From Parcubacteria group bacterium (lineage in GTDB: Bacteria > Patescibacteriota > Minisyncoccia > Moranbacterales > UBA2206), in contig JBAYUI010000002.1 of NCBI GenBank assembly GCA_041675165.1, positions 376-64,375 of the forward strand: 64,000 nt of DNA, read 5' to 3'. Numbering within the stretch: the first letter of the stretch is position 1; each line of letters starts with the position of its first letter. The notes under the pieces are model-generated. The model saw only the letters and a list, made by a program, of their open reading frames with translations. It ran no database searches and had not been told where the DNA came from. The position numbers and the translations under genes were made by a program. This document shows, piece after piece, positions 61,972 through 62,705 of this stretch.

Positions 61972-62047
61972 GCCTGAGTAGCTCAGCTGGTTAGAGCAAC
62001 TGTTTTGTAAACAGTAGGTCGTCGGTCCGAATCCGACCTCAGGCTCA
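61972..62047 (+). tRNA. tRNA-Thr(UGU)
   Basis: gcctgag/ta/gctc-agctggttag-gagc/a/actgt-ttTGTaa-acagt/aggtc/gtcgg-tccgaat-ccgac/ctcaggc/t. 76 nt cloverleaf. Confidence 0.85.
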
Positions 62048-62131: not shown

Positions 62132-62214
62132 GGGTCGGTGGCAGAGTGGTCAATTGCACCTGACTGTAAATCAGGCGACGTAAGTCTACGGCGGTTCAAA
62201 TCCGTCCCGGCCCA
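62132..62214 (+). tRNA. tRNA-Tyr(GUA), type II with long variable arm
   Basis: gggtcgg...cctga-ctGTAaa-tcagg...ggcgg-ttcaaat-ccgtc-ccggccc-a. 83 nt. Confidence 0.85.
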
Positions 62215-62240
62215 CACAATTTGATGTTAGTGAATAGTTT

Positions 62241-62517
62241 GCCGTTGTAGCTCAGTTGGTAGAGCATTTCCATGGTAAAAATTTGCCCACCGTTTGGAAA
62301 ACTAAACAGTGCATACCCGAATAACGGTTAAAGACCTAGTATCAGGTTCAGACCGTGGCATCTTGTTGTGGCAAGAGGCCCGAACGACTGACAAGGGGGG
62401 CTAAATCCCACGTAAATGGGACATGTCCGATATACAGTCTAATCCTTTAATAGATATTTTATAAAATAAAGGTTCAAATGAAGGAAAAGGTCTCCGGTCC
62501 GATTCCGGACAACGGCT
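62241..62517 (+). tRNA. tRNA-Thr(GGU) interrupted by a 204-nt intervening sequence after anticodon-loop position 36
   Basis: 5' half 62241-62276 gccgttg/ta/gctc-agttggta-gagc/a/tttcc-atGGT. 3' half 62481-62517 aa-ggaaa/aggtc/tccgg-tccgatt-ccgga/caacggc/t. The halves give a perfect 73-nt cloverleaf that parallels tRNA-Thr(UGU). Confidence 0.75.
62277..62480 (+). ncRNA. Putative self-splicing (group I-like) intron inside tRNA-Thr(GGU)
   Basis: 204 nt. The 5' exon ends in U and the intervening sequence ends in G (ggttcaaatG), as at group I splice sites. Internal hairpins (cccacgtaaatggg, ggacatgtcc). gactg...cagtc could form a P7-like pairing. No ORF. Confidence 0.45.
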
Positions 62518-62549
62518 CAGTAAGTTGTAATTATGTAATATCTAATAAT

Positions 62550-62705
62550 ATGGCACGAGAAAACCTAGTGAAGATGAAATGCAGCGTGTGCAATTCCATC
62601 AATCATTTCACGAAAAGGAATAAGAAGAAGATCAAGGAGAAATTGGAGCTGAAGAAGTTCTGCAAGAAATGCCGAACAAATACGGTGCATAAGGAGATGA
62701 AATAA
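62550..62705 (+). CDS. rpmG: Ribosomal protein L33 (zinc-ribbon form)
   Basis: MARENLVKMKCSVCNSINHFTKRNKKKIKEKLELKKFCKKCRTNTVHKEMK, 51 aa. The 62478 start in the ORF track overlaps the tRNA exon and is not real. Confidence 0.85.
   Translation: MARENLVKMKCSVCNSINHFTKRNKKKIKEKLELKKFCKKCRTNTVHKEMK

Follow-up and report, generated by a model that had tools for sequence, protein, structure and literature searches.

When a gene for an essential RNA is found in two pieces, it has to be asked whether the intervening sequence is removed from the transcript or whether the gene has been lost. This question is raised by a tRNA-Thr(GGU) gene that is broken in its anticodon loop by 204 nucleotides. The window, i.e. 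the whole 64-kb stretch of DNA that was analysed, is part of a contig from an ENA metagenome assembly of which the proteins are labelled 'Parcubacteria group bacterium'; a neighbouring protein has homologues from Moranbacteria, the nearest named relatives. The answer we arrive at, with high confidence, is that the insert is a compact ORF-less group I intron of the Patescibacteria tRNA-Thr(GGU) 36/37 lineage that has been described before.

The split tRNA-Thr(GGU) gene

Joining of nucleotides 62241-62276 and 62481-62517 gives a canonical 73-nt tRNA-Thr(GGU), which is split between nt 36 and 37. The locus has the following parts (R1 is a covariance model that is introduced below):

62241..62276, + strand: 5' exon of tRNA-Thr(GGU), nt 1-36, from ARAGORN -i; identical to intact orthologues
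62277..62480, + strand: insert of 204 nt, in all likelihood a group I intron; R1 gives 193 bits over 62271-62486, and a P1-P9 fold is backed by covariation
62481..62517, + strand: 3' exon of tRNA-Thr(GGU), nt 37-73, first nucleotide A37, from ARAGORN -i and intact orthologues

The 5' exon (GCCGUUGUAGCUCAGUUGGUAGAGCAUUUCCAUGGU) terminates in ...CCAUGGU, with the anticodon GGU at its end and U36 as the -1 nucleotide, the 37-nt 3' exon reads AAGGAAAAGGUCUCCGGUCCGAUUCCGGACAACGGCU, and the 3' terminus of the insert is ...AAAUG. A preliminary description of this DNA had proposed that two halves make up a canonical 73-nt tRNA with the break after position 36, and its coordinates proved to be exact, ARAGORN and the intact orthologues being in agreement. 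With intron search, ARAGORN places an intron of 204 nt at 36/37 of a tRNA-Thr(GGU) in the native locus, and on the joined halves it gives a clean 73-nt tRNA. The split gene is missed by default ARAGORN and by Rfam at the gathering threshold, both of which report only the four neighbouring uninterrupted tRNAs. No second tRNA-Thr(GGU) was detected in the 64-kb window by ARAGORN with intron search, and we infer that the split gene is the sole such gene in the cell. Inside 62277-62480, ORFs with a length of at least 40 aa are absent.

In the window copy, a dinucleotide AA leaves three possible boundaries, 36/37, 37/38 or 38/39. Since family members with an intron that starts with G lift this ambiguity, the site is 36/37. 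The gene is part of a cluster with the order Thr(UGU)-Tyr-Thr(GGU)-rpmG-Trp, upstream of which rpoA, rplQ, rplM, rpsI, rpsB, tsf and a PSP1 gene are found.

The uninterrupted gene in related genomes

Relatives were represented by contigs encoding a homologue of the 238-aa TPR protein next to the locus, with identities of 82%, 74%, 71% and 67%. On those contigs that reach beyond the TPR gene, the gene order is kept and tRNA-Thr(GGU) is uninterrupted. The joined halves are identical at 73/73 positions to the intact orthologue in four syntenic relatives (L002/L003, L005, L007/L008; Thr-Tyr-Thr-rpmG-Trp cluster), and one intron-less relative derives from the same sample as the window. Because of this identity to an orthologous intact gene, the insertion cannot be attributed to chance.

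The preliminary description also pointed to the neighbouring tRNA-Thr(UGU), which indeed has the same AGGUC variable loop and the same unusual GGUCCGAWUCC T-arm. The T-loop UCCGAWU of both Thr tRNAs (62026-62032 and 62498-62504) has C at position 55. A uridine at this position (U55, pseudouridine) is near-universal in tRNA T-loops, and the normal UUC is seen in tRNA-Tyr, tRNA-Trp and tRNA-Leu of the window. Of the roughly 50 tRNA-Thr(GGU) genes with an intron, only the window copy has C in place of U55, while the intact tRNA-Thr(GGU) genes of L003, L005 and L007 are identical to the window exons and hence have the same unusual T-loop. In tRNA-Thr(UGU) it occurs, among these three relatives, only in L005.

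A free-standing 131-aa ORF of the PD-(D/E)XK type (PF11645) is present in both intron-less relatives L007 (3256-3651) and L008 (773-1168), between tRNA-Thr(UGU) and tRNA-Tyr; the intact tRNA-Thr(GGU) lies about 125 nt downstream of it. PF11645 is a family of homing endonucleases that are found inside cyanobacterial tRNA-fMet introns (Nakagawa et al. 2026, mSystems, PMC13011429).

A family of introns at one site

Inspection by hand showed that a group I fold is possible for the insert and that two of its elements, AACGACUGACAA and GAUAUACAGUCU, resemble the classical R and S elements. A search pattern spanning these two was run on IMG/VR and on GTDB species representatives. Five related elements were found in IMG/VR and 39 loci in the GTDB species representatives. 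Short core spacing was seen in 23 of these 39 loci, i.e. 22 tRNA-Thr(GGU) introns, mostly of Patescibacteria, and one chance match; the other 16 are from Clostridia, have a fixed spacing of 57-58 nt, lie outside tRNA genes and form one class with the five viral elements. Scanning of metagenome contigs yielded 28 further copies, every one at tRNA-Thr(GGU) 36/37. This brings the total to 51 occurrences (the window, 22 GTDB genomes and 28 metagenome contigs), 42 of which are distinct.

The introns of this family are 188-217 nt long, carry no ORF and occupy tRNA-Thr(GGU) 36/37 in 51/51 cases. It had been noted for the window copy that the 5' exon ends with U and the insert with G, which is borne out by the whole family: the final nucleotide is the omega G in 51/51 members, and U at -1 together with the guide G was read in 50 of the 51 copies, the remaining one being masked by N there. 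R1 finds one copy in the window and one per intron-bearing family locus, and no second copy in about 630 kb of fetched sequence. The identity of the window intron to the nearest of the recovered members does not exceed 74.5%. Across genomes, the two exon halves covary in the acceptor and anticodon stems that they form (e.g. gccgttg/caacggc, gccgaga/tctcggc, gccatca/tgatggc), and therefore the spliced tRNA is under selection.

These data bear on the possibility that the window holds a pseudogene, i.e. that this tRNA-Thr(GGU) has lost its function through decay of an intron or through some other insertion, while another copy does the decoding. The closest relatives, including the one from the same sample, do carry an intact allele, and with 64 kb of the genome in view a second copy could lie beyond. 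However, the exons are identical at 73/73 positions to functional orthologues, purifying and compensatory selection on the intron core and on both exon halves is evident in 42 distinct sequences, and the window itself has no second tRNA-Thr(GGU). Moreover, it is rare for a genome to have both an intron-bearing and an intron-less copy with the same anticodon (PMC13011429). Inactivation of the gene is thus very improbable, and a family of introns under selection is the preferred reading.

Some of the matches call for comment. ARAGORN assigns His(GUG), Arg(GCG/ACG) or Leu(GAG/AAG) to certain members, but these calls are boundary shifts, as the exon reads ...CCAUGGU and, with the boundary set after U36, the gene is Thr(GGU). 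The matches in L036 (Betaproteobacteria) and in the viral L010, L012 and L014 were discarded as chance occurrences of the pattern in coding sequence. Loci L020 (labelled Bdellovibrionales) and L043 (labelled Gammaproteobacteria) are MAG contigs with a tRNA-Thr intron of the Patescibacteria type; L020 has a CPR-like rpmG after the intron-bearing tRNA, and L043 and L033 have nearly identical introns. These two contigs may be mis-binned rather than represent the intron outside Patescibacteria.

Downstream of the tRNA, other features were encountered. On the reverse strand of locus L029, the intron-bearing tRNA-Thr(GGU) is followed by a second, partial tRNA 3' end (...GGUCAACGGCUCA) that is broken by a GC-rich palindrome, CCUGCCUGCCGGCAGGCAGG; it resembles a scar left behind where an element had integrated into the tRNA 3' end. 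In L019, L037, L039, L041, L042 and L043, an ORF starts some 50-65 nt past tRNA-Thr(GGU), after a terminator-like hairpin, and its N-terminus is conserved in the six loci (M-[ED]-I-x-x-[LV]-x(2,3)-[FR]-F-C-[DE]-[HY]); a weaker and more distal candidate in L046 is probably the same. This ORF may encode a tyrosine recombinase at a tRNA integration site, or simply reflect conserved synteny.

Structure of the intron

A MAFFT alignment of 21 sequences was submitted to RNAalifold, and a model-based alignment of all 51 sequences served as a second test. RNAalifold unaided gave P1, P2, P4, P5, P6, P7, P8 and P9, with 22 of 44 pairs changing on both sides. The full model consists of these helices, of P3, which forms a pseudoknot with P7, and of an outer P7 pair across a one-nucleotide bulge. 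In the MAFFT alignment of 21 sequences, 97.1% of the cells are paired, as compared to 83.2% in shuffles and 25-47% with 3' partners slid, and 26 of 48 pairs show both-sided change. In the 51-sequence alignment the corresponding values are 97.0% paired, 83.9% in shuffles and 24-44% when slid, with both-sided (compensatory) change in 28/48 pairs. The elements are, in 5' to 3' order:

62274..62287, + strand: P1, exon G34, G35 and U36 with guide G9, C10 and C11, plus A1A2/U7U8
62288..62311, + strand: P2 hairpin; 7/7 pairs change on both sides
62316..62318, + strand: P3 5' strand, CCC; 100% paired, C-G becoming U-A with column 163 in two sequences
62319-62323, + strand: J3/4, GAAUA, directly after the P3 5' strand
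62324..62356, + strand: P4 (ACGGUU/GACCGU), J4/5 AAA, P5 hairpin and J5/4 CA; P5 covaries, and R1 aligns this block to P4-P5 of td
62357..62380, + strand: P6 hairpin; 4/5 pairs change on both sides; followed by J6/7, CGA, at 62381-62383
62384..62390, + strand: P7 5' strand, with A108, bulged C109 and G110-G114; followed by J7/3, ACAA, at 62391-62394
62395..62397, + strand: P3 3' strand, GGG, closing the P3/P7 pseudoknot
62398..62428, + strand: P8 hairpin with internal loop; 7/7 counted pairs vary, 6 of them on both sides
62429..62440, + strand: J8/7 GAUAUA and P7 3' strand CAGUCU (the classical 'S' element)
62444..62472, + strand: P9 hairpin with an AU-rich loop; 5/6 pairs change on both sides
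62480..62480, + strand: omega-G, final intron nucleotide; G in 51/51

The GC, GC and UG pairs of P1 are present in 21/21 aligned and in 41/41 distinct sequences, the two extension pairs covary, and a U36.G9 wobble is located at the 5' splice site. Read from the window sequence alone, U6-U8 could form a P10 with AAG of the 3' exon. P4 is invariant even though it lies outside the search pattern, and the same holds for the A-rich junctions J3/4 (GAAU), J4/5 (AA) and J6/7 (CGA), none of which was in the pattern. As the search pattern prescribed the inner five pairs of P7 and the first part of P3', their invariance is no evidence. The outer P7 pair (A108-U164) changes from A-U to G-C across the bulge in four distinct sequences. 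P7 thus has A108-U164, a bulged C109 and G110-C163, and by analogy with the Tetrahymena and td architecture the last of these is the putative guanosine-binding pair. P3 is only 3 bp long with a single covarying pair; RNAalifold would instead pair CC (alignment columns 58-59) with GG of the 3' exon, but these columns are invariant and P3 was preferred for its one covarying pair.

The loop of P2 is GAAA in 36 of the 42 members and AAAA in the window copy. The internal loop of P8 is CUAAG/UAUG, which is like the 11-nt tetraloop receptor, in 17/42, whereas the window copy has CUAAA/CAUG; in two sequences with GUAA in L2, P8 is a plain helix. This pattern suggests a tertiary contact between L2 and P8 in the family. 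An L2-P8 contact exists in the Azoarcus intron, which the family's GAAA on P2 and receptor-like P8 loop recall.

The precise insertion with AA on both flanks, and the varying presence among close relatives, would also suit a non-autonomous transposable element (a MITE or IS remnant) or an archaeal-type bulge-helix-bulge intron that is cut by a protein endonuclease. The transposon reading is rejected because the insert lacks terminal inverted repeats and, apart from the 2-nt AA ambiguity, shows no duplication of its target; furthermore, family members with a G-initial intron lack even the AA repeat, and a single site is used in 51 occurrences, with none elsewhere in the roughly 630 kb of fetched sequence. 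For the bulge-helix-bulge type, in which the splice sites are in two 3-nt bulges on either side of a 4-bp helix, the fold is wrong, being that of group I, and so is the gene context, which is bacterial (rpmG, rpsB, tsf); the site is 36/37 instead of the usual 37/38, and the 5' splice site is inside a continuous P1 with the 3' site after an unpaired tail. Either type of element can be regarded as practically excluded in favour of a group I intron.

Relation to other group I introns

RF00028, the Rfam model of group I introns, gave no match at the gathering threshold in the whole window, nor at E<=10 in 62200-62560 (361 nt). As a positive control, it does find the T4 td intron with 40.3 bits and an E value of 2.7e-8. 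The miss is treated as a limit of the model and not as evidence against group I membership; according to a statement in Williams (2020, bioRxiv 10.1101/2020.01.27.920355), the RF00028 seed is without bacterial sequence. Since RF00028 is blind to this lineage, 'no covariance match' must not be taken as 'no intron'. The preliminary description would have taken the lack of a covariance match, together with RNA-seq without ligated exons, as a sign of a pseudogene; with RF00028 silent here, the first half of this rule taken literally would have rejected a real intron.

The covariance model R1 was built from 21 tRNA-Thr introns alone. With filters off, it matches nucleotides 749-903 of T4 td with 19.4 bits and E ~5e-6 (shortened calibration), a match that covers the 5' half of td only and in which the guide GCC, P2, P4 (ACGGGG/UCCCGU), J4/5 and P5 of td are correctly aligned. 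The td intron, a classic self-splicing intron of subgroup IA2, has like the Thr intron a U.G wobble with a GCC guide and a P2 hairpin; its P4 is ACGGGG/UCCCGU versus ACGGUU/GACCGU in the Thr intron. Both also have AACGACU in P7 and GAUAUAGUCU in J8/7-P7', the J8/7-P7' of the Thr intron (62429-62440) being aligned with td AGAUAUAGUCU according to the RF00028 alignment of td. In contrast, td splits a protein-coding gene, measures about 1 kb and has an ORF for the homing endonuclease I-TevI, whereas the window intron is in a tRNA, has a length of 204 nt and lacks an ORF. The core sequences and the cross-match of R1 point to the IA (td) type and not to IC3. Group I membership as originally proposed is well supported by a GGU/GCC P1 with U.G, a terminal G, compact size, the lack of an ORF and a covarying P1-P9 fold.

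A second conserved RNA in Clostridia and viral contigs

The elements with wider spacing represent another conserved RNA, some 350 nt in length, with the same P7-J7/3-P3'-P8-J8/7-P7' core (AGACUGACAAGGUUUG...GUGAUAUACAGUC) and a GAAA-capped hairpin at its end. It was found in IMG/VR (L009, L011, L013, L015, L016), in a metagenome (L084) and in GTDB Clostridia/Lachnospiraceae (L017, L021, L023-L027, L034, L038, L044, L045, L047, L048, L051, L053, L055). Its spacing is fixed at 57-58 nt (60 nt in L084), it does not occur in a tRNA gene, and two copies are present within 8 kb in L027 and in L038. Rfam gave no match with the viral and Clostridia-type elements, nor did blastn of L013:430-810 against an annotated phage collection. 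Clostridia prophages thus probably carry a further lineage of group I introns that is undescribed or for which no model exists. The match of R1 to this Clostridia/phage class extends over 54 pattern-selected model positions only and is therefore no independent evidence of wider homology.

Comparison with published tRNA introns

The number of bacterial tRNA types known to bear introns had already been increased from 4 to 21 by Williams (2020, bioRxiv 10.1101/2020.01.27.920355). That tRNA-Thr(GGU) would be a new location, as the preliminary description suggested, turned out to be mistaken: introns at tRNA-Thr(GGU) 36/37 of Patescibacteria are already listed in Table 1 of PMC13011429. Nakagawa et al. 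report them from three complete Patescibacteria genomes (GCA_001029635.1, GCA_016700375.1 and GCA_030583745.1; Table 1, Fig. 6c). These introns escape RF00028 and are detected by gpI_bact_tRNA.cm of tFind, and ARAGORN miscalls two of them as Arg(GCG) 34/35 (PMC13011429). The same authors credit Castelle et al. (2018, Nat Rev Microbiol) with the term 'divergent group I introns'. The window intron shares with the published Thr introns the phylum, tRNA, anticodon, site, size class, absence of an ORF and failure of RF00028, and ARAGORN miscalls such as Arg(GCG) 34/35 are reproduced on the recovered family members; there is no difference in kind.

In the tree of PMC13011429, the Thr introns are on long branches within the IA clade, grouped with other Patescibacteria tRNA introns, and no Patescibacteria tRNA intron is classified as IC. 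The Asn and Asp introns of Patescibacteria resemble the Thr introns in phylum, compactness, mostly lacking an ORF, location in the anticodon loop and order of the core elements. They differ in the tRNA and in the site, which is 35/36 instead of 36/37, as well as in having canonical P, Q, R and S elements (GAAUUGCGGG, AAUCCGCAGC, UCAGAGACUA, GAGAUAGUCC) that are found by RF00028, whereas the counterparts in the Thr family (ACGGUU, GACCGU and the two elements of the search pattern) are missed. The IC3 introns of Azoarcus tRNA-Ile, Agrobacterium tRNA-Arg, cyanobacterial tRNA-Leu(UAA) and tRNA-fMet also are in the anticodon loop, are about 200-250 nt long and mostly have no ORF, and those of Azoarcus tRNA-Ile and Agrobacterium tRNA-Arg are at 36/37 as in the Thr family. 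They differ in that the Thr core sequences are closer to the IA (td) type.

Splicing and possible mobility

Besides the exact split, the family, the covarying fold, the splice-site nucleotides and the selection on both exon halves, all of which are observed, we infer catalysis by the window intron. The pre-tRNA would be transcribed with the intron included, and the intron would fold into a P1-P9 core with the P3/P7 pseudoknot. Pairing of the exon's anticodon GGU with the guide GCC would cause U36.G9 to mark the 5' splice site, after which a free guanosine bound in P7 (at G110-C163, beside the bulged C109) could attack after U36. The terminal G204 would next occupy the same pocket in P7, so that the 3'-OH of U36 can attack after G204 and U36 is joined to A37, giving a normal 73-nt tRNA-Thr(GGU).

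It could be objected that this is a group I-derived RNA that has lost self-splicing, and that its divergent, minimal core needs a host protein for folding or catalysis, or that splicing depends on conditions and thereby gates how much tRNA-Thr(GGU) is supplied. The divergence of the sequence is too great for RF00028, P3 is very short, L2 of the window copy is AAAA instead of GAAA, and its P8 loop departs from the receptor-like motif of 17/42 members. However, every canonical core element and junction is present and conserved, and among the genes linked to the locus there is no candidate for a cofactor. Compact ORF-less introns of about 200 nt, such as that of Azoarcus, are efficient self-splicers. 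Nakagawa et al. (PMC13011429) speculated on a regulatory role, which would fit conditional splicing, and the long branch in their tree also fits a loss; on the other hand, related Patescibacteria introns, i.e. those of Asn and Asp, to which their splicing assays were limited, do self-splice in vitro. Loss of self-splicing is thus quite unlikely, and an active intron is the better explanation.

A somewhat less remote prospect, though still an unlikely one, is that such an active intron is also mobile to this day without an endonuclease of its own, or that it is kept for coupling the maturation of tRNA-Thr(GGU) to GTP/Mg2+ status. The lack of an ORF, the use of one site in 51/51 cases and the patchy presence among close relatives, which include two populations from the same sample, leave room for mobility of this kind. 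The intron could move by reverse splicing into tRNA-Thr(GGU) or through the action in trans of a free-standing homing endonuclease like the PF11645 ORF of L007/L008. Coupling to GTP/Mg2+ would possibly operate in genomes that have few regulators.

Implications

The split gene has consequences for annotation. On the source contig, a gene was called at 62478-62705 for a 75-aa 'L33' of which the ATG overlaps the final intron bases and the tRNA 3' exon, while L33 (rpmG) is 51 aa in relatives, matching an ATG at 62550. This upstream extension of rpmG is an annotation error that arose because the split tRNA was not recognised. As default ARAGORN and Rfam skip the split gene, the genome moreover appears to be without tRNA-Thr(GGU).

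Since the type of intron, the host tRNA, the position and the phylum are already known from the literature, the intron has little weight as a discovery. Its value lies in the family: the three copies published so far can be expanded to about 50 sequences at one site, with a structure that is backed by covariation, and this set should be useful as the seed of a better covariance model.
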